Positions 22,849-40,020 are shown, counted from the stretch's first letter. The stretch is DNA of 64,000 nucleotides from Candidatus Pacearchaeota archaeon (GCA_038869895.1 JAWCQE010000001.1:121879-185878), one strand, 5' to 3'. Notes: generated from the sequence alone by a model not told the origin. Numbers and translations: made by a program.

Positions 22849-23541
22849 TCAAGCAAGATAATCTATAGTTAGTTTTGGTGCTATATCTAGTAAGCCAGTT
22901 CTTTGGGCAAGTTCCCTAGAAATAAATCCCACTCCGTGGTCATCGCCGCCATACCCATCATCAATGTCTCTCCCTTTAATAGTGAATCCGTAATTTGGTT
23001 CTCCAGCAACCCAACCTCGGACAGCTTGTTTAACATCCCAGTTATGGACTCTTCCATCTAAAATAATTCTTGAAGAAGAAATAAATTCCATATGATTAAA
23101 AGAAGAATTATGAGTTAAACCTCCTTCTTGCCAAGGATTTAAGGTAAGTTTATCAATATCTACTGTAGCTATTGGTTGTATACGGGACGCTGTTATTACA
23201 GAACTCATGGAAAAAATTGCACTATCAATCCTTGCATTTCTTGGGATACTTGAAACGTCAAATTTTACATACCCTCTAAAACTTGCACTACGTTGTGGAG
23301 TGTGGATTTCACCAGTTTGTATAATATCTTCTCTTCCGTAATTTGTTGCAGGATTTTCAGAACTTGTATAAGTATCTCCAATGGCATATAAAACAATGGA
23401 ATGGAACTCTCCGTTTCCACCTCCTCCTCCGCCTCCGTCTCCCCCTCCAGGGTTGCTAGAAGGACAACCTGCTATTATCCAGTAGCCTGCTAATCCTAAA
23501 GTTTTTAAAATTTCCCTTCTTGTAATTATATCCCCCTTCAT
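22849..23541 (-). CDS. Tat-signal lipoprotein with DNRLRE/CBM96-like beta-sandwich domain
   Basis: The N-terminus TRREILKTLGLAGYWIIAGC has a twin-Arg motif plus a lipobox-like Cys, followed by a poly-Gly linker. The domain reads ...GDTYTSSENPATNYG...GYVKFDVSSIP.NARIDSAIFSM...WQEGGLTHN...WDVKQAVRGWVAGEPNYGF, which fits my recollection of the DNRLRE domain. Confidence 0.55.
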   Translation of the reverse strand: MKGDIITRREILKTLGLAGYWIIAGCPSSNPGGGDGGGGGGGNGEFHSIVLYAIGDTYTSSENPATNYGREDIIQTGEIHTPQRSASFRGYVKFDVSSIPRNARIDSAIFSMSSVITASRIQPIATVDIDKLTLNPWQEGGLTHNSSFNHMEFISSSRIILDGRVHNWDVKQAVRGWVAGEPNYGFTIKGRDIDDGYGGDDHGVGFISRELAQRTGLLDIAPKLTIDYLA

Positions 23542-23838
23542 TTTTTTATTTAAAATTAAGAGTTTAAATATTTTTCCTTTTGATGTGGTTTGTAAAGTAA
23601 ATCCTTAAATCAAGTTACTTTTTTTACAAAGGGTAATTATTTTACGAAACTTATTCAGATGAATTGTAAATGAATCTTCAAATTTGATTTTATTTATAGG
23701 GCAATATCGATATCTTACAAATAGCAAGATTAGATAAGGTATTTTTATCAATATTAAATTTATTTATATATTATAGAAATTACAAATTTTACTATTTATT
23801 TTATACTTTTAAGTATAATTAATTATTATAAATAGAAT

Positions 23839-24969
23839 CTATTCTGTTCTAAAATGATGTTCTATATATTCAACCATCTCGCGAGCTGAAAGTTTAACAC
23901 TTGCTGGCCCATTTCTTATGTAAAATTCCTCTTCATTTTGAAATTTTACAAAAACAGGCTTTTTTGATTTTTGACATTCAATCTTTAGAACATGTTTATC
24001 ATCTACTGGAAAGAGTTCAAATTCAATAAAATGGAGATATTCATTTCCTATGTATTTTTTAAGAAGATTTGTGAAATGAAGATTTAGCGAATCATTATCT
24101 TTGAAATTATCCTTTTCCAATCCACATATTTTTCCATTGTCATTTACTCCTATTAATAATGTTCCTCCTTCTGTATTGAGAAAAGCAGAAATAGTTTTTA
24201 TTGTAGAATATTCGATTTTGCTATCAATCTCATTTGTATGAAGATTTGTCCTTAATGTTGATTTAAATTCGAGATTTTTTGATTCTCCAACACTTATTAT
24301 TTTTTTTATTTCATCAGAAGATTCTTCCAAAGTATTTCTAATTCTAAAAAATCGCTTATATCTCTCAATTTGTTTTGAAACAAACTTAGAGATTATTTTT
24401 ATTTCTCCATTTTGTATATATGAATATCCGATTAGTGATATTATAAACGCCCCGAATGTGTTTGTTATAATGTCTTTCATTGTGTCAATATTGGACTTTT
24501 GCATTTTGAATCCAAAGAGATTGTCAATTGAAAATTCAATTATTTCCCATAATACCCCTACAGCAATTGTAAAACAGAAAGTCAGGAATGAAATAATCAA
24601 TGGATTTGCTTTTATTTTCCTATCCCTATACAGAGCATATAATATAATAAGTCCGACAATTCCAAGAACGCTTGCTGCAATAAGATTAAGGGCAATATCC
24701 CACCACCAAAACTCAGCAAAAAATCCTCTCACTTCACTTAGAAAAAGGATTCCATAAATTGATAGTATGATTATTATTTCATAAATCGCAGGAAAATTAA
24801 CTCCAAGCGTTTTCAATACTTTTGGAACAAATGTTGCAACAAATCCTATTAACGAAAAGACCATTACAAGATTTCTTCCATAATAAATTGAACTTATGAA
24901 GGCTAAAGCAAGGAGCCCTCTTATTAAATTAATCACCAAAAATTTAACTTTCTCTCTTTCCTCTCCCAT
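23839..24969 (-). CDS. Membrane protein (about 5-6 TM) fused to a C-terminal AlbA_2/Schlafen-like putative DNA-binding domain
   Basis: The N-terminal ~200 aa are polytopic. The C-terminal part reads GESKNLEFKSTLR.N........KIEYSTIKTISAFLNTEGGTLLIGVNDNGKICGLE, the hallmark of the AlbA_2 (divergent AAA/Schlafen-type) domain. Confidence 0.6.
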   Translation of the reverse strand: MGEEREKVKFLVINLIRGLLALAFISSIYYGRNLVMVFSLIGFVATFVPKVLKTLGVNFPAIYEIIIILSIYGILFLSEVRGFFAEFWWWDIALNLIAASVLGIVGLIILYALYRDRKIKANPLIISFLTFCFTIAVGVLWEIIEFSIDNLFGFKMQKSNIDTMKDIITNTFGAFIISLIGYSYIQNGEIKIISKFVSKQIERYKRFFRIRNTLEESSDEIKKIISVGESKNLEFKSTLRTNLHTNEIDSKIEYSTIKTISAFLNTEGGTLLIGVNDNGKICGLEKDNFKDNDSLNLHFTNLLKKYIGNEYLHFIEFELFPVDDKHVLKIECQKSKKPVFVKFQNEEEFYIRNGPASVKLSAREMVEYIEHHFRTE

Positions 24970-25159: not shown

Positions 25160-25648
25160 ATGAAAAGAGGACAATTTCAACTTGGATTTGGAATGATTTT
25201 CTCTATTATATTGATAATTGCATTTATAATTGTTGCATTTATTGCTTTCAAAGCTTTTTTTGGAGTGAGGTGTTCTACTGAACAAGGAAGATTTATTTAT
25301 GAACTTCAGAATGAAATTGACAGGATATGGAAAGGCTCGGGCGAGGATAGGATTAAGGAATTTAAAATTTTAGGATGTGATTTTGATTATGTTTGTTTTT
25401 GGGATCCAAATGTTCCTTCAAGAGGAAATTTCAGAACTTTTGAAGACGATTTCAGTATTTTTACAGGAGATGAAGGAAACCATAATTTATATTTTTATCC
25501 AAGAAAAAAAGTAGAAATTTCTTCAACCTTGATAAAGCATATTAATATGGATTTTAGAGAGAATCCTGTATGTTTTAGAAACGAGGAGAATTCTGTTAAA
25601 ATAAGACTCAGCAAAAACATTGACGAAGATTTAGTAAGAGTCTCATAA
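25160..25648 (+). CDS. Prepilin-like protein (class III signal peptide)
   Basis: The N-terminus MKRGQFQLGFGMIFSIILIIAFIIVAFIAF has an RG|Q context. It is the first gene of a tightly packed four-gene run. Confidence 0.6.
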   Translation: MKRGQFQLGFGMIFSIILIIAFIIVAFIAFKAFFGVRCSTEQGRFIYELQNEIDRIWKGSGEDRIKEFKILGCDFDYVCFWDPNVPSRGNFRTFEDDFSIFTGDEGNHNLYFYPRKKVEISSTLIKHINMDFRENPVCFRNEENSVKIRLSKNIDEDLVRVS

Positions 25649-25649
25649 A

Positions 25650-26600
25650 ATGAATAAAAATGGTTTTGAGTTCAGCTTTGCATGGCTGTTTGCGATAATT
25701 GCTGGTGCAGCTGTGCTTTTTCTTGCAATTTTTTTTGCAACAAAATATGTTTCAACAAGCGAATTTGAAATTAATACAAAAATTGCAGCCGAATTTGTAA
25801 ATGTTCTTAATCCTTTGCAAACAAGTGTTTATGATTCATCTGCAATAAATGTATTTCTCCCATCTGAAGCGAGAATTTTTACTTCATGCGATAGTGGAGG
25901 AAATTTTGGAAGAAGTATTGTAACTTTTTCCGAAAAAATAGGTTTTGGTGAAAAATTTTCAAGGGCAGGCAATCCAATCTCAACTGAAAATTCATATTTA
26001 TTTGCTGAAAATATTATTGAAGGAAAAAAGATTAATTTTCTTGTTTTCTCTTTAAAAATGCCTTACAAAATTGGGGATATTCTTATAGCTTATTCTGATT
26101 CTTACTGCTTTGTAAATGCCCCAAGAAATATTGAGAGAGAACTTGGAGATTTAACAGAAGGAAATAGTTTTGATGTCATATTCACTTCAAATAAAAATGC
26201 CTGTCCTGAAAGTAAGCCTGTGTGTTTTGGAGGTTTTGAATGTGATATAAATGTAAGATGCAACGACAATGAATGTTTAAGTGGATTTGTAAGAAAGGAT
26301 GGAATGGATAATTATTTTACTGGAAAACTTTTATACGGAGCGATATTTTCGTCAAGGGAAAATTATGAGTGTAATGTTAAGAGATTAATGAAGAGGCTTG
26401 AATCAGTTAGCACTATTTATTCTAAAAAATCCCAGTTTATAGCTTCAAGAGGATGCACTAATACAAATTTGCTTCCATTAATTGAATCTCTTAGAGAATC
26501 TTCTGGAGAATTTGAAAGGCTTGAAAACCTCCCACAAATTTCCTCTATTGCAGACGAAGTAAATGAAAAAAATAAATATCTTGAATGCCAGTTATTTTAA
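25650..26600 (+). CDS. Prepilin-like protein
   Basis: The N-terminus MNKNGFEFSFAWLFAIIAGAAVLFLAIFFA has an NG|F context. It starts 1 nt after the upstream stop. Confidence 0.55.
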   Translation: MNKNGFEFSFAWLFAIIAGAAVLFLAIFFATKYVSTSEFEINTKIAAEFVNVLNPLQTSVYDSSAINVFLPSEARIFTSCDSGGNFGRSIVTFSEKIGFGEKFSRAGNPISTENSYLFAENIIEGKKINFLVFSLKMPYKIGDILIAYSDSYCFVNAPRNIERELGDLTEGNSFDVIFTSNKNACPESKPVCFGGFECDINVRCNDNECLSGFVRKDGMDNYFTGKLLYGAIFSSRENYECNVKRLMKRLESVSTIYSKKSQFIASRGCTNTNLLPLIESLRESSGEFERLENLPQISSIADEVNEKNKYLECQLF

Positions 26601-27125
26601 ATGAAAGATAAAAAAGCCCAATTAAAGATAAAGCAGATGATTTTTATGCTTCTAGCTCTAACTATTTTTTTTGTTCTTGTTGCTTTGTTTTTTATCTCAA
26701 TAAAATCAATTAACCTTGAGAAAGAGGTTGTTGAATTAAAAAGAGATAGAGCTTCTAACTTAGTTGAAAAACTTTCTTCAACTCCGGAATTTATATTTGA
26801 AAACAAACCAAATTCAATTGATGCAGATAAACTTATTATCCTTCAAAGTGAAAGTATATATAGAACGAGAACGGATTCGACTTTTTGGGGAGTTGAGGGG
26901 ATAATAGTAAGAAGAATTTATCCGAAAGAAAGAGAGATTGAATGCACTAAATTTAACTATCCTGAATGTAATATTATCAAACTTTTTACAGAAAAAAATA
27001 CAAGTCCAACTTCAAGTTTCGTTTCATGGTGTAGAAAACAAAGTCTTGAAGGAAGGACGTATGATAAATGCGAACTTGCAGAACTTATGATAATTGAGGA
27101 AAAAATAAATGAAGCTCAAGACTAA
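26601..27125 (+). CDS. Prepilin-like protein
   Basis: The N-terminus is MKDKKAQLKIKQMIFMLLALTIFFVLVALFFI. It abuts the upstream stop. Confidence 0.5.
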   Translation: MKDKKAQLKIKQMIFMLLALTIFFVLVALFFISIKSINLEKEVVELKRDRASNLVEKLSSTPEFIFENKPNSIDADKLIILQSESIYRTRTDSTFWGVEGIIVRRIYPKEREIECTKFNYPECNIIKLFTEKNTSPTSSFVSWCRKQSLEGRTYDKCELAELMIIEEKINEAQD

Positions 27126-27609
27126 AAAATCGCAGGAAGAAATAGTCGGGTTTGTTTTAATAGTTGTCCTTATTGCTATTATCGGAGTTATATTTTTAGG
27201 GATATCCTTAAGAAAGGATTCAGGTAAGGTTAATGAAAGCCAAAAAATTGCAAGCCTTATAACTTCAATATCTCATTTGACAACTCAGTGTCAGATAAAT
27301 TCAAATTTCCAAGATGTAAGTGATTTAATAAATGGGTGTGCTAATAGAAGAATTTGCGATGATTCAAAGCCTACTTGTGAAGTCTTAAAAACCACTCTTG
27401 ATGAGGTTATGAAAGCAAGTTATGTTGTAACTGATAAAAGCTTTACAACACATTATAATTTAACAATAAATAATAAATTTGATAATACTATTTTAATAGA
27501 GCCGGTAATTTCAGGAAAAGTTGAAAGATGTCTTGGAAGAAAACTCGTAAATGAAAAAAATTTTGGCAGAGATTTATCAATGAGGATTGAAGTCTGTTTT
27601 AATGAATAA
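27109..27609 (+). CDS. Prepilin-like protein
   Basis: The N-terminus is MKLKTKKSQEEIVGFVLIVVLIAIIGVIFLGI. It overlaps the upstream gene by 17 nt. Confidence 0.5.
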   Translation: MKLKTKKSQEEIVGFVLIVVLIAIIGVIFLGISLRKDSGKVNESQKIASLITSISHLTTQCQINSNFQDVSDLINGCANRRICDDSKPTCEVLKTTLDEVMKASYVVTDKSFTTHYNLTINNKFDNTILIEPVISGKVERCLGRKLVNEKNFGRDLSMRIEVCFNE

Positions 27610-28460: not shown

Positions 28461-31115
28461 ATGAAAATTAATTTTAGAAAAGTCGGTTCAGTTATTGCGA
28501 GTGCAGCTATGCTTGGAAGCACAATGGGAATTGCTGTTGCAGCCTCTTATCCTGGTGCGTTTACTGCAGGAGGGGCTGGAGGAGTAGCAATAGTTACAGG
28601 AAGTATTGCAGCTTCAAGTGATTTTGTTGCAGCAACAGAGATAGGTTCAAATTTAAACAGTGCGATTGCTGCAGGTATAATTACTACTGGTGGAAGTGTT
28701 ACAACTAGTGGAGAAACAAAAGCACTTTTTACAGGTTCCTCAAAAATATATATGAATGATAGTATAAGCATAAATAAAGCTACTTTAACGAAAACTGATT
28801 TGCCAACTATTCTTGCAGATGGTGAATTTAATGGAAATGTTGATTCTGAATATACACAAAGAATTATTCTTGGTTCTTATCCAAGAGTTATTTTTGGAAA
28901 AATGCCAACAACTGAGAATGATCCTTTAACAGGAATCAACCTTGGCACAACAGTTACAACACAATATTTATATAATATGACAGTTACATTTGACGAAGCA
29001 GTTAACTTTACCCACTCTGATTCAAAAACAAAAGGGACTGAAATTACTTTATTTGGACAGAAATTTACAGTGGCTGGAGCTACAGATTCTAGTAAATTGG
29101 TATTATTGAAGTCAGCTCAAAAAATTACTTTGGGTCTTGGAGGAAACAATCCTAATCCAGTTCAATCTGTAACAGTTAATGATAGGACGTATACAGTAGA
29201 ACTTACAAATGTTCAAGATGATGAGGCCATAATTAAAGTAACTGATAGTAATGGACAAAGTTCAACAGCAAGAATTAGTGAAGGGGCTTCAAGAAAAGTT
29301 CAAGGATTAGAAGTTGCAGTTAACATAGCTACAGAATCAACTGCATTGAGTAGTGCATGGGCAGATATTATTGTTGGAACCTCAAAAGTTACTCTTCAAG
29401 ATGGAGAGCCTGTGAAAGTAGGTTCTGAGGATAAGATAATTGATGGTACTCAAGTTGATTTTGTTGATACCACATATACTGGGAATATAACTAGACTTGT
29501 TGTCCAAGTTGCAGCACCTGAAAGTGATAAAGATGCGATAACTCCTGCAATGTCATTTGTTGACCCTGTTTTTGGAGGTTTCAAAGTTGATTTTCCTGGA
29601 TTAAATATTGCAAATGAAGATGAAACTGCCAGAGAAATGATTGAAGTCAAGAATTCAGGAAGTGACAAAATGACTGTAAAATTTACAGACTATAATAAAG
29701 GTGAGATAACCTTTAATTGGGTCTATAACAGATCTAATTCACAGGGAGGAATTATGAGATTAGCAGATTCAAACAACAGAAGGATAATTGTTGCTGAAAT
29801 GTCTCCTATAAATAAATCAGAATATGTTATGGTTGGAAATGAAGATGAAGGAGGATTGTACCAAGTTGTAACAATCACAAATTCTTCGGGATTTTCAGAT
29901 GATTCAGTTGAATTAAGAGATGTTATTACAGGAAAAACTGAAAAAGCTTCTATTACTGCTGAAGGTTCTGGAACTATTGTCCTTAATGGAAAGACATATG
30001 AGGTAAGTTATTTTGCACCAAACACTTTAACTGACACAGCAAGAACCATAAGATTAAATTATCCTGACAGTTCAGGCAATAGTGTAATCTTATATCCTAC
30101 AATTGAAACGTCAAAAGGAGCAAAAATTGCTTTCTATGAACCATTAACTATAGATCTGATGACTCAACATGCTGGAGGCAATTTATCTGGACATAATATA
30201 AAATTTCCAGATGGAGATGGTTATACTGACGCCGCAGTTGTTATTGTAAATACAACTACTGGAATGGTGACTATAGATGGGAACAATCTTAATACAGGTG
30301 CTTCAGATGGAGCAAGTTCTACAACTAAAACTGTCGGAAGATTAACTTACAATTTCACAAGTACAGGTGTTGGTAACAATACGAAGGTCTATCTTCAAGC
30401 AATTCCAGGAGTAAATATTGTAAGGCCTGCAATAATCCTTTTTGAAGAAAAAGATGACCAAAATAATTACGAGGCTGTAGTTATTACATTAGATTCAGGT
30501 TATGACGGAGATAGTGCAGGAATCGGAGTCCAAAATGTTATAAGAACATGGGGGCTTGATGGTTCTAATGGAGATTCAGATGCATGGAATGATGTAAGAC
30601 TTGAAAGCAATGATGACTTGTATCAAGACATGGATAGATGGGGAACAATAATCACTGCTGATAAATCTGATAGTGATCAAACAAGGGCTGTAATAAGCTA
30701 CCCAGATGAACAAGTATATGCACAAGTCTATGTATCTTCATCAAATGCAGTCGTGTCTTCAGGAAATGGAGGAGCAGGAACCGTAATGGTTGTGAGAGAT
30801 AATGAAGTTGACAACATTGCAAACAAGAATCTGATTGTTGTTGGGGGTAGCTGTGTAAATACATTAGCTGCTGAATTGCTTGGAAGTTCAAATCCTTTAT
30901 GTGGAAGGGATTTCACTGCAAGAACAAATGTCGGTGTTGGAGAATACCTAATTGAAACTTTCTCACGAACTGACGGAAAAATTGCTACCTTAGTCGCAGG
31001 ATATGAAGCTGATGATACAAGGGCTGCAGCAAGGTCTTTGGTAACAAATAATCCAGAGATTGCTTCTGGTGTCAAGTATAAAGGTTCGACTTCAGGCTCA
31101 TTCACAAGAGCGTAA
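28461..31115 (+). CDS. Candidate S-layer / major surface glycoprotein (884 aa)
   Basis: A strong SD (GGAGGT, 5 nt before the ATG) precedes a signal peptide ending ...MGIAVAAS. The protein is Thr/Ser/Asn/Gly-rich with many N-x-S/T sequons. Its only two Cys sit in the C-terminal NLIVVGGSCVNTLAAELLG...LCG segment. I recall that motif type from archaeal S-layer proteins. A long T-rich tract follows the stop. Confidence 0.6.
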   Translation: MKINFRKVGSVIASAAMLGSTMGIAVAASYPGAFTAGGAGGVAIVTGSIAASSDFVAATEIGSNLNSAIAAGIITTGGSVTTSGETKALFTGSSKIYMNDSISINKATLTKTDLPTILADGEFNGNVDSEYTQRIILGSYPRVIFGKMPTTENDPLTGINLGTTVTTQYLYNMTVTFDEAVNFTHSDSKTKGTEITLFGQKFTVAGATDSSKLVLLKSAQKITLGLGGNNPNPVQSVTVNDRTYTVELTNVQDDEAIIKVTDSNGQSSTARISEGASRKVQGLEVAVNIATESTALSSAWADIIVGTSKVTLQDGEPVKVGSEDKIIDGTQVDFVDTTYTGNITRLVVQVAAPESDKDAITPAMSFVDPVFGGFKVDFPGLNIANEDETAREMIEVKNSGSDKMTVKFTDYNKGEITFNWVYNRSNSQGGIMRLADSNNRRIIVAEMSPINKSEYVMVGNEDEGGLYQVVTITNSSGFSDDSVELRDVITGKTEKASITAEGSGTIVLNGKTYEVSYFAPNTLTDTARTIRLNYPDSSGNSVILYPTIETSKGAKIAFYEPLTIDLMTQHAGGNLSGHNIKFPDGDGYTDAAVVIVNTTTGMVTIDGNNLNTGASDGASSTTKTVGRLTYNFTSTGVGNNTKVYLQAIPGVNIVRPAIILFEEKDDQNNYEAVVITLDSGYDGDSAGIGVQNVIRTWGLDGSNGDSDAWNDVRLESNDDLYQDMDRWGTIITADKSDSDQTRAVISYPDEQVYAQVYVSSSNAVVSSGNGGAGTVMVVRDNEVDNIANKNLIVVGGSCVNTLAAELLGSSNPLCGRDFTARTNVGVGEYLIETFSRTDGKIATLVAGYEADDTRAAARSLVTNNPEIASGVKYKGSTSGSFTRA

Positions 31116-31291
31116 AAACAATTTATTTTTACTTTTTCTTTTATTTTTTATTTATAAAATAATTATATATTAATTAAATTATAAAAAGTCAATAAACTAA
31201 TGTATCGTTCATTTAAAAAATAAAACTTGTTAAGAGATTATTGAATAATTTTATTAATAAACTTTTTAAACAAGATTTGATATTTTATAAA

Positions 31292-31885
31292 ATGAGAAGA
31301 ATTGAGACAAAAGAAGATGCTGAAAAGAGGAAGAGAAGAAACCAGATAATTATTGCATTTGTTTTTATTAGTATTCTTACAAGTAGCACTATAGGATTTG
31401 TTTTTGTATTTAAAAATCCAGAATTTGATTCAAGTGAAAATAAGGAAAGTATAGATTATAATGGAATTAATTTTGTAAGAAACCAGCGAGGATATTGGCA
31501 ATTTAATTCTCACAATAGTACCTTTTTTACTTTATTTAATCCAAAAGAAACAGAAAATATTTCTTTTGAAGGAGAGGTAAATGTTAACGATTTTGTTAAT
31601 AAACCTCTTTATTATTCATCTGGAAATATGACTGCAGCACTTTCAGAACTAATGAGAAACATTGGAAGTTTCTCACTTAGGTATCAAGAAGTATGTGTTG
31701 AGAATTATGAATGTAAGAATGAAGGACTGCCTATAAAAGACTGTTCAAATGATATTATTATATTAAAATTATCAGATGAAATAAAAGCTTATAAACAGGA
31801 AAAATGTATTTTCCTTGAAGGAACTGAGGAAGAATTAATTTTGCTTGCAGATAAATTAATCTATAAATCTTTAGGTATTCAATAA
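31292..31885 (+). CDS. N-terminally membrane-anchored hypothetical protein; paralog of the next gene
   Basis: The ATG at 31292 gives MRRIETKEDAEKRKRRNQIIIAFVFISILTSS, whereas the ORF-track start at 31241 is a TTG. It shares a C-terminal pattern with ORF 31885: ...C....(I/L)(I/Y)L......K......KC.(F/V)L......EL. Confidence 0.45.
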   Translation: MRRIETKEDAEKRKRRNQIIIAFVFISILTSSTIGFVFVFKNPEFDSSENKESIDYNGINFVRNQRGYWQFNSHNSTFFTLFNPKETENISFEGEVNVNDFVNKPLYYSSGNMTAALSELMRNIGSFSLRYQEVCVENYECKNEGLPIKDCSNDIIILKLSDEIKAYKQEKCIFLEGTEEELILLADKLIYKSLGIQ

Positions 31886-32562
31886 TGAAAGAACAAAAAG
31901 AGATTAAAAAGGAATCTTTAGAAAATAGAACAAAGGAAGAAGATAAAGACTCTTATCAGGAAGTAGGAGTTAAATGGCTCTTTATAATCCTTGCGTTTTT
32001 AGTTACTTCATTGATTATTGTTGGATGGATTTTATCAGAATCAAAGAAATCTGATTATATTGGACTGACTTTTAAAAAAGAGAATTTTGGTGAAATTCCA
32101 ATTTATACAACTTCTCTTACAGGATATGGTGTTAATGGAAAACCAATTGATTTTAAATTAATATTGAGAAATAATCCTAAAGAATCAAAAATACCAGTAA
32201 TTGGAGAAGTTGATTTTGTAATTGGTAAACCCATATATCTTTCTCTTAACATGGAAGGAGAATTATACAAATGTGGTTCTACTCCTTTAGTTGCCTTTGG
32301 CCAGTTTATGGATGCAATGGGTTTTAATATACAAACTGGAATAAGCACAGAAGATAAGGCAAATGAATTTCAAAGAGAATATATAACATGCCTTAATACT
32401 CCAGATGCTACGGTTTTATATCTTACTGAAGGCAATGAAAGTAAAATAGAAAGAGTTGACGATAAGTGCTATGTTTTAAGTGTAAATAATTGCGAACTTA
32501 CAGAAGTTCTTGAGAGGTTTGAGATAGCAACACTTTCAACATTAACAGGAAAATCGCTTTAA
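31885..32562 (+). CDS. N-terminally membrane-anchored hypothetical protein
   Basis: It has an acidic/Lys-rich N-terminus, a single TM helix (WLFIILAFLVTSLIIVGWIL) and an extracytoplasmic domain. Its start overlaps the upstream stop (ATAATG). Confidence 0.45.
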   Translation: MKEQKEIKKESLENRTKEEDKDSYQEVGVKWLFIILAFLVTSLIIVGWILSESKKSDYIGLTFKKENFGEIPIYTTSLTGYGVNGKPIDFKLILRNNPKESKIPVIGEVDFVIGKPIYLSLNMEGELYKCGSTPLVAFGQFMDAMGFNIQTGISTEDKANEFQREYITCLNTPDATVLYLTEGNESKIERVDDKCYVLSVNNCELTEVLERFEIATLSTLTGKSL

Positions 32563-32679
32563 AAATTAATTACAAAAATCATTGGAGTTTTTTATTAATG
32601 AGAATTTGATTGCTGAAACAAGTGAAATAAAAATAATCTCCCAGATTATTTTTCACAAAATTAATGAGAAATTTTCTTA

Positions 32680-33219
32680 TCATTTATTTTTTATATATTT
32701 CATAAAATAATTTACATCAGAATAAATAGGAATTTCCTTTATTTCAAAAATATAAATTGCTGAAAACCATATTATGACAACAAAAATCGTGCTTAATCCA
32801 TACCAAAAAAATTTATGTGTTATATCAAAGAATTGATAATTCGATAAAAAGAGGGATGAAAGGACAATAATTCTTATAATGTTAAATCCAAGAAAAACTG
32901 CGAATAGATAAATAAGTGAGTAAAGTCTTTTTTTATTTTCCATAGGTGTTGAGAGGTTTAGAATTAAAATAAGATAATATGCAGAGCCCGCGATACATGA
33001 TTCTATTAAGTTAATTGTTACGTTGTCTACAATTATACTTATTCCAGAAATATTTGTTGAGTAAAATAATTTTAATACATAAAAAACTGGATAAATTGTA
33101 AGAGGAGTTAACACTTTGTAGATTATCCAAAGATTTCCAATCCCAATAACAGCAAGAAAAATATATCTAAAGAGAATATTATAATAATTATAATTATTTG
33201 GCACCTTTCTTTTTTTCAT
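32680..33219 (-). CDS. Miniature exosortase/archaeosortase-family protein (candidate transpeptidase)
   Basis: It is a 179-aa all-TM protein. A Cys in ...NLIESCIAGSAYY..., an Arg in ...GFNIIRIIV... 41 residues later and a His in ...DITHKFFWYG... resemble the Cys/Arg/His signature arrangement of the family. Confidence 0.5.
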   Translation of the reverse strand: MKKRKVPNNYNYYNILFRYIFLAVIGIGNLWIIYKVLTPLTIYPVFYVLKLFYSTNISGISIIVDNVTINLIESCIAGSAYYLILILNLSTPMENKKRLYSLIYLFAVFLGFNIIRIIVLSSLFLSNYQFFDITHKFFWYGLSTIFVVIIWFSAIYIFEIKEIPIYSDVNYFMKYIKNK

Positions 33220-33259
33220 TTAATACTATATTAAGATTAACTAGTTTAAAAACCTTATA

Positions 33260-34897
33260 TTATCTTTTTGCTATCCTTATGGCAACGATAATTATTAATA
33301 TTATTAATACAACATTAATAATAGCTATTAGCCAGATAATCCAATTTTCCCTTATATTGTTGGCAATTGAACTTCCTGTGAGTCCTTTTATTCCACTCCA
33401 ACCAACTTTTGGCTGAATGTTTGGAACACTTATTTTTTTTTCAGTTACTCTTCCATTGTGAGATACTTGGAGTGTAAAATCGTTATTTCCTGAGACGTCG
33501 CTATTTGGAGTTAAGGAAATTACAACCTCTCTTGAACTTCCTGCATCCAATGTTATTGTTCTTGGCTCAATTGAATTTAATGATGCCCATGTATCGTAAT
33601 TTAGGGCTGAAATTTGATATAATGTCTGTTCAGTTCCTGTGTTTGTTATTGTTGTTTTTATTATAAGATTTTGTCCTGCTACAGCACCAGACTCAAGTCT
33701 TGCTGAAATCCCCACAGAACTCTGTGAAGTTGTTGTAGTGGATCCCTGGCAATTTCCTTTGATTGTGAGAGGAATTGTAAATATTGATTCTTTTTCATCA
33801 GCATCTTCAAAATAATTTCCGTCTTCGTCATAAACCTCAAATCTCAAATTATATGTGCCTTCCCTAATATTTTTTGGAATTTCAAGAAGGAATGAAGTTC
33901 TTTTATCATCTAATGAATCTATATCCCCAAGTTCAATTATTTTCTGAAATCCAAATTCATTTACACTAACTTTTAATTCTACATCATCTTGGTTATCACT
34001 TCCAATATTCCAAAATGTTGCAGCAGTTACATCTACACTTGAACCACATTGCAAAGTTTCTGGCAGACTTAATTTATTGAAGTCCAAAATTATGAAATCT
34101 TCATCTATAAGTTCTGCTTCTTTTGTTTCATAAGCACATTGGACGTTTTCTCCAACATCATCACTAAATGCTTTTACAATGAGCATTAAGTTATCTCCTA
34201 AATCATCTTCACTGAAATCGTCAGGGTCTAGTTTAATTTTGATTGTTAGAATTTTGTTTTTTCCGTCGCTTAAATCAAATTCTTCTTCATCATTTTCATC
34301 AATTATTTTCCCTGTATTTTTATTAATAAGCATCCATTCAACAATTATGTCCCTTATTTTTTCATCATCTCTATTATCAACTTTAACTTCAAGTTCAATT
34401 TCATCTAATAAATACCATTCATCATCTTTTCCGTGTCCATTGTTATTTATGTGAAGTCTTACTCTTAAATCCCCCACATTGCCAACACTACAGAAAGTAT
34501 TTGTAAATGATACTGAAACATTTATTTTTTTTGTATTATTTGGACTTGCAACTTCCACAGCTTCAATTTCAATATTTTTTGTCTGTTGGATAAATGAAAA
34601 TCCATCCTCAATATTTAATACTGAAATTTTAAATCTTGCTGTTTTGACGTCTGTTATTGATGTTTCATTTATTATGGAAAGAGTAGCTTTTTTATCATTA
34701 TTATCTGTTATTTGCACTGATGAAGGGAAATTAAAATTTACAGACACATTATTTGTCACTGAAATTGTAAAAGTAGTAGTTGATGATTTGCTTACTATAG
34801 GTGATGGAGTTGTAGAACTTAAAACAGGTTCTACTGCGGATACAAATGAAATTATAAAAATGCTTGCCAAAAAAATTGATAGTACTTTTGATTTCAT
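33260..34897 (-). CDS. Secreted surface protein with beta-sandwich (CARDB-like) repeats and a C-terminal TM + basic sorting-type tail
   Basis: The signal peptide ends MKSKVLSIFLASIFIISFVSA|VEP. The C-terminus is ...IRENWIIWLIAIINVVLIILIIIVAIRIAKR. The segment ...TLDAGSSREVVISLTPNSDVSGNNDFTLQVSH is CARDB-like. Confidence 0.6.
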   Translation of the reverse strand: MKSKVLSIFLASIFIISFVSAVEPVLSSTTPSPIVSKSSTTTFTISVTNNVSVNFNFPSSVQITDNNDKKATLSIINETSITDVKTARFKISVLNIEDGFSFIQQTKNIEIEAVEVASPNNTKKINVSVSFTNTFCSVGNVGDLRVRLHINNNGHGKDDEWYLLDEIELEVKVDNRDDEKIRDIIVEWMLINKNTGKIIDENDEEEFDLSDGKNKILTIKIKLDPDDFSEDDLGDNLMLIVKAFSDDVGENVQCAYETKEAELIDEDFIILDFNKLSLPETLQCGSSVDVTAATFWNIGSDNQDDVELKVSVNEFGFQKIIELGDIDSLDDKRTSFLLEIPKNIREGTYNLRFEVYDEDGNYFEDADEKESIFTIPLTIKGNCQGSTTTTSQSSVGISARLESGAVAGQNLIIKTTITNTGTEQTLYQISALNYDTWASLNSIEPRTITLDAGSSREVVISLTPNSDVSGNNDFTLQVSHNGRVTEKKISVPNIQPKVGWSGIKGLTGSSIANNIRENWIIWLIAIINVVLIILIIIVAIRIAKR

Positions 34898-35137
34898 TTT
34901 GTTGTAATTTTATAATTACACCTATTTATAAATGTTTCGATTTTTATAAACTCTATTGAAATTAAACTCAAATTTATCGATGATAAATTAAGACTTGTGT
35001 TTTTTGTGAAAAATTGAAAAATTTTGAATTAAAGTTTTACAGACAGACTAAACATAACTTTAATATAGTTTTGTTTTAAAAGAAATTTAATATTTTTAGA
35101 TAGTAAGATTTATAATATTAGCAGATTTAGATATTTT

Positions 35138-35641: not shown

Positions 35642-36019
35642 TTAGTTATTTCGTGGAGAATCTTGGATAAATCCACTAGATGTATTAATTTCCGCGAATT
35701 GTGGGGTAGCAATTATTATATTTTCTCCAAATCCCGTAATGTTTCCTTCAAGAGCTTCTGTCGTTTTTTTTAACTTTGCAACAGCTCTTTTAAGTTCAAT
35801 TACATCTTTTTTCCTTAATGCTTGAATATCTATAACAGCGATTGTATATCCTTCTCTTAGAGAATTTAATACTTCATTAATGTCTTCAAATTTTCTAAGA
35901 ACAAAAGGCCTTACACTTACTTTAGATCTTTTCTCTTCATTTCCAATGTCAATTTCAACATAATCTTCATCTGATGAACTATCTCCTCCAACCAATTTTT
36001 TTAATTTATTTAAGACCAT
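35642..36019 (-). CDS. sepF: Cell division protein SepF (FtsZ membrane anchor)
   Basis: It has an N-terminal amphipathic MVLNKLKKLV. The core is ...VRPFVLRKFEDINEVLNSLREGYTIAVIDI..L.......ELKRAV.KLK......G.I...GENIIIATP, which matches the SepF/DUF552 pattern. Confidence 0.8.
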   Translation of the reverse strand: MVLNKLKKLVGGDSSSDEDYVEIDIGNEEKRSKVSVRPFVLRKFEDINEVLNSLREGYTIAVIDIQALRKKDVIELKRAVAKLKKTTEALEGNITGFGENIIIATPQFAEINTSSGFIQDSPRNN

Positions 36020-36063
36020 AGAAAATTTAATTTGAATGAGTTTATAAAGATTTCTGTATTATA

Positions 36064-36393
36064 TCATTTAAGTTTGTTCATAATTTCTGCTCTTAGTCTT
36101 TCTATCTCTTCCTTCATTTCAAGTTCTTGTTTCTCAACAGATTTAACCTTTAAATCAAGGATTTTCTTTTTTTCACCAAGTTCTTTATTTAATGACGCCT
36201 TATCTGATTTTACCATTATCTGTCCAATAACTCTAAATACATCAGATTTTGTTTTTCCTATTTCGTTTATGGCTGTAAGAATTTCATTTATTTCTATTTG
36301 AAATGTCTGCTTCTGAAGAATAATATTCTGAAAATTTTGTTCCAATATTTGTAGGCTTTGTATTTTTTTTCCAGTTTCTTGATCAACTTCCAT
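36064..36393 (-). CDS. pfdB: Prefoldin beta subunit
   Basis: A coiled coil, beta-hairpin and second coiled coil are arranged as ...LQILEQNFQNIILQK...VFRVIGQIMVK.... The size is ~109 aa. It sits in the conserved neighbourhood with rpl37ae and rpoP. Confidence 0.8.
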   Translation of the reverse strand: MEVDQETGKKIQSLQILEQNFQNIILQKQTFQIEINEILTAINEIGKTKSDVFRVIGQIMVKSDKASLNKELGEKKKILDLKVKSVEKQELEMKEEIERLRAEIMNKLK

Positions 36394-36421
36394 TTTATTG
36401 ATATAATCTTTTATATTTTAT

Positions 36422-36559
36422 TTAAATCGCTTTTATTTTTGTAATTGATAATCTTGGTTTATAAAAAATTCTTGAATTACAAAATGGACAAGTGAATCTT
36501 TTGTCAAGTTTTTTATATGAAATTGATTTTCCACATTTGAAACATTTATATTCTACCAT
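36422..36559 (-). CDS. rpoP: DNA-directed RNA polymerase subunit P (Rpo12/RPABC4), 45 aa; below the ORF-track size cut-off
   Basis: Hand translation gives MVEYKCFKCGKSISYKKLDKRFTCPFCNSRIFYKPRLSITKIKAI. This shows a CxxC...CxxC zinc ribbon and the R.(I/L).(Y/F)K.R tail typical of RpoP. Confidence 0.75.
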   Translation of the reverse strand: MVEYKCFKCGKSISYKKLDKRFTCPFCNSRIFYKPRLSITKIKAI

Positions 36560-36591
36560 TTGTTTTATAGAACTTATTTAGTATTTAAATT

Positions 36592-36804
36592 TTATTCTAA
36601 ATAATAAGCTCCTCCGGCGAATGTTTTTCCGCATTTTTTACATTTCCATATCCCAAACGATTTTCTCTTTGCTGTTTTTTTACAGAATGGACAAATTTGT
36701 TTTTTCCTTTGTTTTGATTCAACCAAAATAAGTCTTTCTCTAACTCTTGTTCCATACCCTATTTTATATTTTCCAGATGCCTTTACTTTTTTTGTTCTAG
36801 ACAT
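36592..36804 (-). CDS. rpl37ae: 50S ribosomal protein L37Ae (eL43)
   Basis: ...GKYKIGYGTRVRERL..VE...RKKQICPFCKK.AKRKSFGIWKCKKCGKTFAGGAY is the canonical eL43 zinc ribbon. Confidence 0.9.
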   Translation of the reverse strand: MSRTKKVKASGKYKIGYGTRVRERLILVESKQRKKQICPFCKKTAKRKSFGIWKCKKCGKTFAGGAYYLE

Positions 36805-37171: not shown

Positions 37172-37197
37172 TTAGTGTTTAGTTTAATCCATTGAGG

Positions 37198-40020
<2,823 letters not shown>

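Follow-up and report, generated by a model that had tools for sequence, protein, structure and literature searches.

The stretch of DNA analysed here (the window), 64,000 nt from a Candidatus Pacearchaeota archaeon with a G+C content of about 28%, carries two adjacent genes on the same strand, one for a 179-aa membrane protein and the other, larger and upstream of it, for a 545-aa secreted protein with a C-terminal sorting tail. Together they probably constitute a dedicated sorting cassette, one enzyme with one substrate, that belongs to DPANN archaea of the Pacearchaeota and Woesearchaeota type, with lipid anchoring as in ArtA. The evidence for the cassette consists of the family membership of both proteins, residues that are invariant in the enzyme, a tail motif exclusive to one protein family, and the linkage of the two genes; by analogy with ArtA, the 545-aa protein would be cleaved and anchored to lipid. 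The first-pass annotation of this DNA had described the two ORFs, separated by about 40 nt, as an enzyme-substrate cassette with an unrecognised signature motif. The ORFs are as described, with a spacer of 40 nt (Table 1), and the idea of a dedicated cassette is upheld by the gene linkage reported below. The motif and the system, however, had been recognised before, for NCBIfam already pairs the families NF033505 and NF033506, and GenBank proteins 99-100% identical to those of the window are named accordingly. The sortase-substrate pair is thus known as a curated NCBI family pair, to which both window proteins belong with scores far above the cut-offs. A full-text literature search for the family names returned no paper using them, and none of the archaeosortase and DPANN papers searched describes a pacearchaeosortase family; the status of the pacearchaeosortase is that of a curated database family rather than of a system studied by experiment.

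Table 1. Features of the sorting locus and its conserved neighbours (positions counted from the first nucleotide of the window).
Feature	Position	Strand	Basis
Pacearchaeosortase ORF, 179 aa	32680..33219	(-)	ORF listing
PACE-CTERM surface protein precursor, 545 aa	33260..34897	(-)	ORF listing, NF033506
Spacer, 40 nt, substrate gene to sortase gene	33220..33259	(-)	ORF listing and DNA
Predicted Sec signal peptide, residues 1-21 of the 545-aa protein	34835..34897	(-)	Sequence and model helix 4-17
C-terminal sorting tail, residues 505-545 of the 545-aa protein	33263..33385	(-)	Tail HMM, logo
Core signature N518-W-I-I-W522-L-I-A525-I-I-N528	33314..33346	(-)	Column counts over 101 tails
Cys75 codon (TGT), presumed catalytic nucleophile	32995..32997	(-)	Codon read; invariant in 200/200 homologs
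Arg116 codon, within the N113-x-x-R116 motif	32872..32874	(-)	Asn113 and Arg116 invariant, 200/200
His135 codon	32815..32817	(-)	Invariant in 200/200 homologs; start of last membrane helix
225-aa conserved convergent neighbour	31885..32562	(+)	Homolog at same position in 66/80 loci
214-aa conserved neighbour	31241..31885	(+)	Homolog in 70/80 loci
884-aa secreted S-layer-like protein, without sorting tail	28461..31115	(+)	PF05124 S_layer_C

In an NCBIfam search, the 179-aa protein matches NF033505 ('pacearchaeosortase') with 202 bits and an E-value of 6.7e-60, the curated cut-off being 80 bits. Residues 13-176 align with profile positions 2-166 of 167, and a GenBank protein 99% identical to it already bears the name. 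The kinship with exosortases and archaeosortases suspected in the first-pass annotation is borne out by this match, beside which there are weaker ones to exosortase H (XrtH; E 1.5e-5) and to TIGR04178 (20.8 bits, E 3.6e-4, just below the cut-off of 23). All 31 aligned homologs, which are 45-57% identical to the window protein, match NF033505, and all 31 also match TIGR04178 at E <= 0.01 (best 1.2e-9); six of them match the Pfam family Exosortase_EpsH (PF09721). Repeated weak cross-matches link these homologs to XrtX (NF046081; 25 of the 31), XrtH (TIGR04177; 19), ArtE (TIGR04124; 18) and heimdallarchaeosortase (NF045528; 16), with scores far under the cut-offs of those families (e.g. 25 bits against 86 for XrtH), and a single homolog matches the ArtA model, weakly. 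The profiles of XrtH and XrtX are comparably small (158 and 168 positions), but all four cross-matching families differ from pacearchaeosortase in the taxa in which they occur and in their cognate C-terminal motifs. Judged by these profile matches, the 179-aa protein belongs to the exosortase/archaeosortase superfamily, as a miniature member. No second sortase was found in the window.

A search of the window protein itself against Pfam gave nothing significant, Exosortase_EpsH included; a PDB sequence search with the sortase family profile returned no match, and no solved structure resembling the 179-aa protein was found. The missing Pfam match and structural counterpart are the points in favour of regarding it as an unrelated small membrane protein that resembles a sortase by chance. 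Chance resemblance of the Cys/Arg/His set and of the tail is excluded by the NF033505 match, by the TIGR04178 matches in 31 of 31 homologs and by the invariance of the residues in 200 of 200 homologs (see below); with the linkage of the two genes also against it, we consider an unrelated protein extremely improbable.

The residues expected of the superfamily occur in the order and at the positions first reported: Cys75 in ESCIAGS, Arg116 in NIIRI, 41 residues further on, and His135 in ITHKF, with all codons checked on the DNA. These three and Asn113 are invariant in all 200 distinct homologs, as are Thr41, Ala77, Trp139, Trp151, Pro164 and Asp168. An AlphaFold2 (AF2) model of the protein (pLDDT 87) is a helical bundle that also includes a three-stranded sheet (residues 55-70) and a C-terminal amphipathic helix (164-178), so that the original description of the protein as entirely transmembrane is a slight overstatement. 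Positive-inside analysis gave net charges of +3.3 for the N-terminus, +3.1 for loop 91-98 and +4.6 for the C-terminus, and of -0.9 and -1.1 for loops 39-72 and 126-134, respectively. From these loop charges we infer a four-pass topology in which the N- and the C-terminus are both cytoplasmic. As loops 39-72 and 126-134 would then lie outside, Cys75 and His135 would be placed at the outer membrane face, His135 standing where the last membrane helix begins, beside an acidic loop that is presumably external.

With 179 aa, about four membrane passes, and an invariant Cys, Asn-x-x-Arg and His, the protein would represent a stripped-down catalytic core of the exosortase/archaeosortase class. ArtA is larger, at about 300 aa. 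By analogy, Cys75 is the presumed catalytic nucleophile. The activity of ArtA of Haloferax volcanii depends critically on Cys173, Arg214 and Arg253 (PMC9263693), and by residue numbers the Cys-to-Arg spacing is 41 in both enzymes (Cys75/Arg116 and Cys173/Arg214). The third critical residue of ArtA is Arg253 and not a His (PMC9263693); no conserved Arg equivalent to Arg253 was found in the homolog alignment about 39 residues past Arg116. The proposed role of His135 is therefore read only from its invariance and its position.

The 545-aa protein in turn belongs to NF033506, 'PACE-CTERM-PROT, putative S-layer protein' (NCBIfam; 377.5 bits, E 1.3e-112, curated cut-off 110 bits). Residues 56-545 align with profile positions 139-627 of 627, C-terminal tail included, and a GenBank protein 100% identical to it is annotated as 'putative S-layer protein' of Candidatus Pacearchaeota. 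It starts with a predicted signal peptide, MKSKVLSIFLASIFIISFVSA (residues 1-21), followed by VEP, the cleavage site having been inferred by reading the sequence; an AF2 model of the protein (pLDDT 84) shows the signal-peptide helix at residues 4-17. Besides a disordered linker (499-516) and a terminal helix (511-544), the same model contains four beta-sandwich domains (approximately 25-131, 135-263, 269-380 and 395-495). These domains are of the Ig-like/CARDB type: CARDB is matched by 23 of 30 substrate homologs, and NPCBM_assoc by 11 of 30. A PDB sequence search for the substrate family gave nothing useful, and structural matches of the model were confined to generic multi-Ig chains (alpha-2-macroglobulin, complement, HYDIN) with low TM-score. 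The name 'putative S-layer protein' is NCBI's own inference, and what was examined here is the architecture of the protein, with its four Ig-like/CARDB domains.

The C-terminal end of the 545-aa protein, ...GLTGSSIANNIRENWIIWLIAIINVVLIILIIIVAIRIAKR, has the sorting-type organisation noted in the first-pass annotation. After a G-L-T-G motif and a short linker come a hydrophobic helix (W519-I540) and a basic terminus, R-I-A-K-R, and the tail is neither unique to the window protein nor without a definable motif. A logo built from 101 distinct tails starts with ...Q-P-V-S-V-x-I-E ... G-I-T-G ... and continues as G-[DG]-N-W-Y-[LI]-W-G-I-G-x-L-N-V-I-L-I-I-L-I-I-V-V-A-V-R-V-A-R-K, from which the signature G-I-T-G ... 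N-W-x-[LI]-W-x-I-[GA]-x-x-N-[VI]-[IV]-L ... R-x-x-[RK]-[KR] is taken. The conserved positions are an Asn (N518 in the window protein; 86 of 101 tails), a Trp (W522; 94 of 101), a Gly or Ala (A525; 93 of 100) and a second Asn (N528; 94 of 101), with a Leu and an Ile after the N528 column each found in 100 of 101, and a conserved G-I-T-G lies about 10 residues ahead of this core. More than simple hydrophobicity is thus conserved, since the set comprises polar and aromatic positions. The window protein carries all four of N518, W522, A525 and N528, and their location places the signature within the hydrophobic helix, in its outer half, not ahead of it.

Searched against the window, the tail HMM matched the 545-aa ORF alone, with an E-value of 2.8e-13 (next best 0.066), and detected no further tail-bearing protein in these 64 kb. 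A search of the tail profile against 1.84 billion cluster representatives gave 590 matches at E <= 0.001, 159 of them at E <= 1e-10. All 150 of the matches listed lie at or near a C-terminus, and among these each of the 129 proteins of at least 120 aa is also detected by an HMM built from the body of the substrate protein without its tail. Shorter tail-bearing database proteins were considered as a second class of substrate and rejected; as every such protein of at least 120 aa has the same body, they are probably fragments. Among the hits examined the tail therefore occurs on a single protein family, a pattern in keeping with one enzyme serving one substrate.

The tail could also be seen as a permanent C-terminal membrane anchor like that of Sulfolobus SlaB, in which case helix packing or oligomerisation would account for the conserved Asn and Trp, and the sortase would be a partner or assembly factor, or a hydrolase that sheds the protein, rather than a transpeptidase. 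A signature inside the hydrophobic helix could equally suit helix-helix contacts. Catalysis is nevertheless favoured by the invariant Cys, Arg and His at the presumed outer face and by the homology to archaeosortases with demonstrated peptidase activity, and a permanent anchor appears unlikely.

Linkage of the two genes was examined in a scan of one genome per species, which yielded 351 loci encoding a relative of the sortase; the best 80 of these 351 were analysed, all labelled Pacearchaeota, Woesearchaeota, Nanoarchaeota or Nanoarchaeia. In 71 of the 80 loci there is exactly one tail-bearing ORF, and in 70 of the 80 it lies upstream of the sortase gene on the same strand; several of the nine loci without a tail-bearing ORF have little upstream sequence, or sequence that is masked. 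The spacing between the two genes is below 300 nt in 23 of the 70 same-strand loci.

The pair also belongs to a conserved five-gene envelope locus, which is a new detail. The conserved order is substrate and sortase genes in one direction, followed in the opposite direction by genes for the 225-aa, 214-aa and 884-aa proteins, and the complete arrangement was observed in 51 of 80 loci. A homolog of the 884-aa protein was found in 46 of the 48 loci having enough downstream sequence. This protein matches Pfam PF05124 (S_layer_C) with 33.1 bits against a cut-off of 23.9, its ORF ends in ...GSTSGSFTRA without a hydrophobic tail, and a PDB sequence search with it gave nothing useful. It had been put forward in the first-pass annotation as a candidate S-layer protein lacking the tail; the absence of the tail is correct, but as a conserved partner in the same locus it is not an unrelated contrast to the 545-aa protein. 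The 225-aa protein consists of an N-terminal membrane anchor and an extracellular domain, and is a weak paralog of the 214-aa protein, which likewise has an N-terminal anchor (pairwise BLASTP E 0.001); neither has a family match in Pfam or NCBIfam.

A second new detail concerns the interval between the two genes. In 36 of the 80 loci a gene for a PAP2-superfamily membrane phosphatase, divergently oriented, lies between substrate and sortase genes, and these intervening genes match PF01569 with E-values down to 3.5e-22. It is not found in the window, where a PAP2 HMM search of the 64 kb detected none. The window pair, with its tight 40-nt spacing and without the PAP2 gene of 36 of its 80 relatives, is an ordinary member of the NF033505/NF033506 families. 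The insertion recalls the artA-pssA-pssD synteny of Methanosarcina, which prompted the discovery that ArtA processing requires enzymes of lipid synthesis (PMC7157517).

The neighbourhood bears on the nature of the acceptor. Preservation of the five genes together in 51 of the 80 loci would suit a protein-to-protein transpeptidase that joins the cleaved C-terminus to the 884-aa, 214-aa or 225-aa protein instead of to lipid. Peptide amines do serve as nucleophiles for bacterial sortases. Yet the neighbour inserted in 36 of 80 loci is a gene for a lipid phosphatase and not for a protein partner, and ArtA, the only archaeosortase studied, yields lipid-modified products (PMC6098224, PMC7157517), so that joining to a protein is very improbable.

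For the preferred reading, lipid anchoring by a dedicated sortase, the precedent is ArtA, for which substrate cleavage and lipid attachment have been reported (PMC6098224, PMC7157517). By analogy, the 545-aa precursor would be exported via Sec, lose its signal peptide and stay in the membrane temporarily through its C-terminal helix. In that half of the helix which lies in the outer leaflet, the four-pass sortase would recognise N-W-x-[LI]-W-x-I-[GA]-x-x-N, and at the outer face Cys75, with Arg116 and His135 assisting, would attack a peptide bond upstream of the helix, possibly near the conserved G-I-T-G, which is a candidate site only. Cleavage would free the helix and give a thioacyl-enzyme intermediate, to be resolved by an amine-bearing membrane lipid, leaving the four-Ig-domain protein lipid-anchored at the cell surface, where it would probably act together with the co-encoded 884-aa S-layer-like protein.

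As in the ArtA/PGF-CTERM system, whose enzyme is homologous to pacearchaeosortase, a membrane enzyme is matched with a secreted surface substrate bearing a tripartite C-terminal signal. The two systems differ in scope, as ArtA serves several substrates with a PGF motif, nine in H. volcanii and up to 52 in other genomes (PMC6098224), whereas the pacearchaeosortase would have a single substrate family with another motif. A C-terminal motif, helix and basic cluster are shared as well with the sortase A/LPXTG and rhombosortase/GlyGly-CTERM systems, in which, by the same logic, a membrane-associated enzyme transfers the new C-terminus to an amine. Sortase A, a single-pass beta-barrel enzyme, and rhombosortase, a rhomboid-type serine protease, are not homologous to pacearchaeosortase. 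The rhombosortase acceptor contains glycerophosphoethanolamine (as cited in PMC7157517).

A wider interpretation, offered tentatively and with less conviction, is that the cassette provides the anchoring half of an envelope module that has two components and is conserved in Pacearchaeota and Woesearchaeota. The four-Ig protein may be a stalk, lipid-anchored by a minimal four-helix archaeosortase that may recognise it inside the membrane via N-x3-W-x5-N, and the 884-aa S_layer_C-type protein may form the canopy, accompanied by the 214-aa and 225-aa anchored paralogs. The coupling to PAP2 in many lineages may then reflect a lipid acceptor route unlike that of haloarchaeal PssA/PssD.

The annotation of the genome is unchanged by these results, as both genes already carry their curated names. 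The pair flags the principal cell-surface locus in a large group of uncultivated archaea whose envelope is essentially unstudied (PMC5744192, PMC6098224). Because its single substrate is encoded next door, the pacearchaeosortase could also be a tractable mechanistic model for its enzyme class. A TATA-like string, TTTATAAATA, occurs at 34923-34932, 26-35 nt 5' of the ATG of the substrate gene; such strings are common at 28% G+C, and it is therefore not taken as evidence. Synteny also extends upstream of the substrate gene, where it takes in the genes for SepF, prefoldin beta and ribosomal protein L37Ae in 40-47 loci.

The cassette formed by the PACE-CTERM substrate gene and the pacearchaeosortase gene belongs to a conserved five-gene envelope locus, in which these two genes are followed by three of opposite orientation, encoding proteins of 225 aa, 214 aa and 884 aa, the last of S_layer_C type. 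All five genes are found in this arrangement in 51 of 80 related loci (the best 80 of 351 encoding a relative, one genome per species scanned), and of the 48 loci whose flank is long enough, 46 have a homolog of the 884-aa protein. The genes for the 214- and 225-aa proteins, which are weak paralogs of each other (BLASTP E 0.001) and have no family match, are kept beside the sortase gene in 66-70 of the 80 loci. Conservation extends to the genes immediately upstream of the cassette, with SepF, prefoldin beta and L37Ae in synteny with it in 40-47/80 loci. In Haloferax, midcell localisation has been reported for archaeosortase A (ArtA) and the S-layer protein (PMC7157517).

Features of the envelope locus, its surroundings and related loci (window coordinates unless a locus is named)
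Feature	Coordinates	Strand	Remarks
CBM96-domain protein (230 aa) and Schlafen AlbA_2-domain protein (376 aa)	22849-24969	-	few kb from envelope locus
Four successive small ORFs (162, 316, 174, 166 aa)	25160-27609	+	
Five-gene envelope locus	28461-34897		conserved; compared with loci L001-L080
Two adjoining genes (214 aa, 225 aa)	31241-31885, 31885-32562	+	products anchored N-terminally
G-L-T-G of PACE-CTERM protein	33374-33385		residues 505-508
SepF (PF04472), prefoldin beta, ribosomal protein L37Ae genes	35642-36804	-	immediately upstream of cassette
23S rRNA gene	37181-40015	-	archaeal, complete
PAP2 gene, example	L010:5339-5965	-	PF01569
PAP2 gene, example	L022:5333-5974	-	PF01569

Substrate and sortase genes are separated in 36/80 loci by a divergently oriented gene for a PAP2-superfamily membrane phosphatase (PF01569), and an HMM search of the whole 64-kb window detected no PAP2 homolog. 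This gene may be connected with the lipid acceptor or with recycling of a carrier lipid. The sorting tail itself contains a further conserved element, G-[IL]-T-G, some 10 residues upstream of the core; the final Gly of this element is conserved in 81 of 89 aligned tails. The element recalls the T-G of LPXTG and, speculatively, could be the site of cleavage.

Four loci contain the archaeal cassette, yet the corresponding MAGs carry bacterial labels (L042, Omnitrophota; L056, Paceibacterota; L059, 'bacterium'; L060, Collierbacteria); these are probably mis-binned contigs.

Among the other genes near the envelope locus, the four small ORFs have no Pfam match. The translations of two of them, the 174- and 166-aa ORFs, were read, and both start with a run of basic residues and then a hydrophobic helix; these products might be pilin-like. 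Their homologs were found in 17/80 and 29/80 loci, respectively, counts that are limited by flank length. The 23S rRNA gene is the sole rRNA gene in the 64 kb, with neither 16S nor 5S detected, and rRNA genes are therefore apparently unlinked; it also accounts for the local G+C content of up to 43%.
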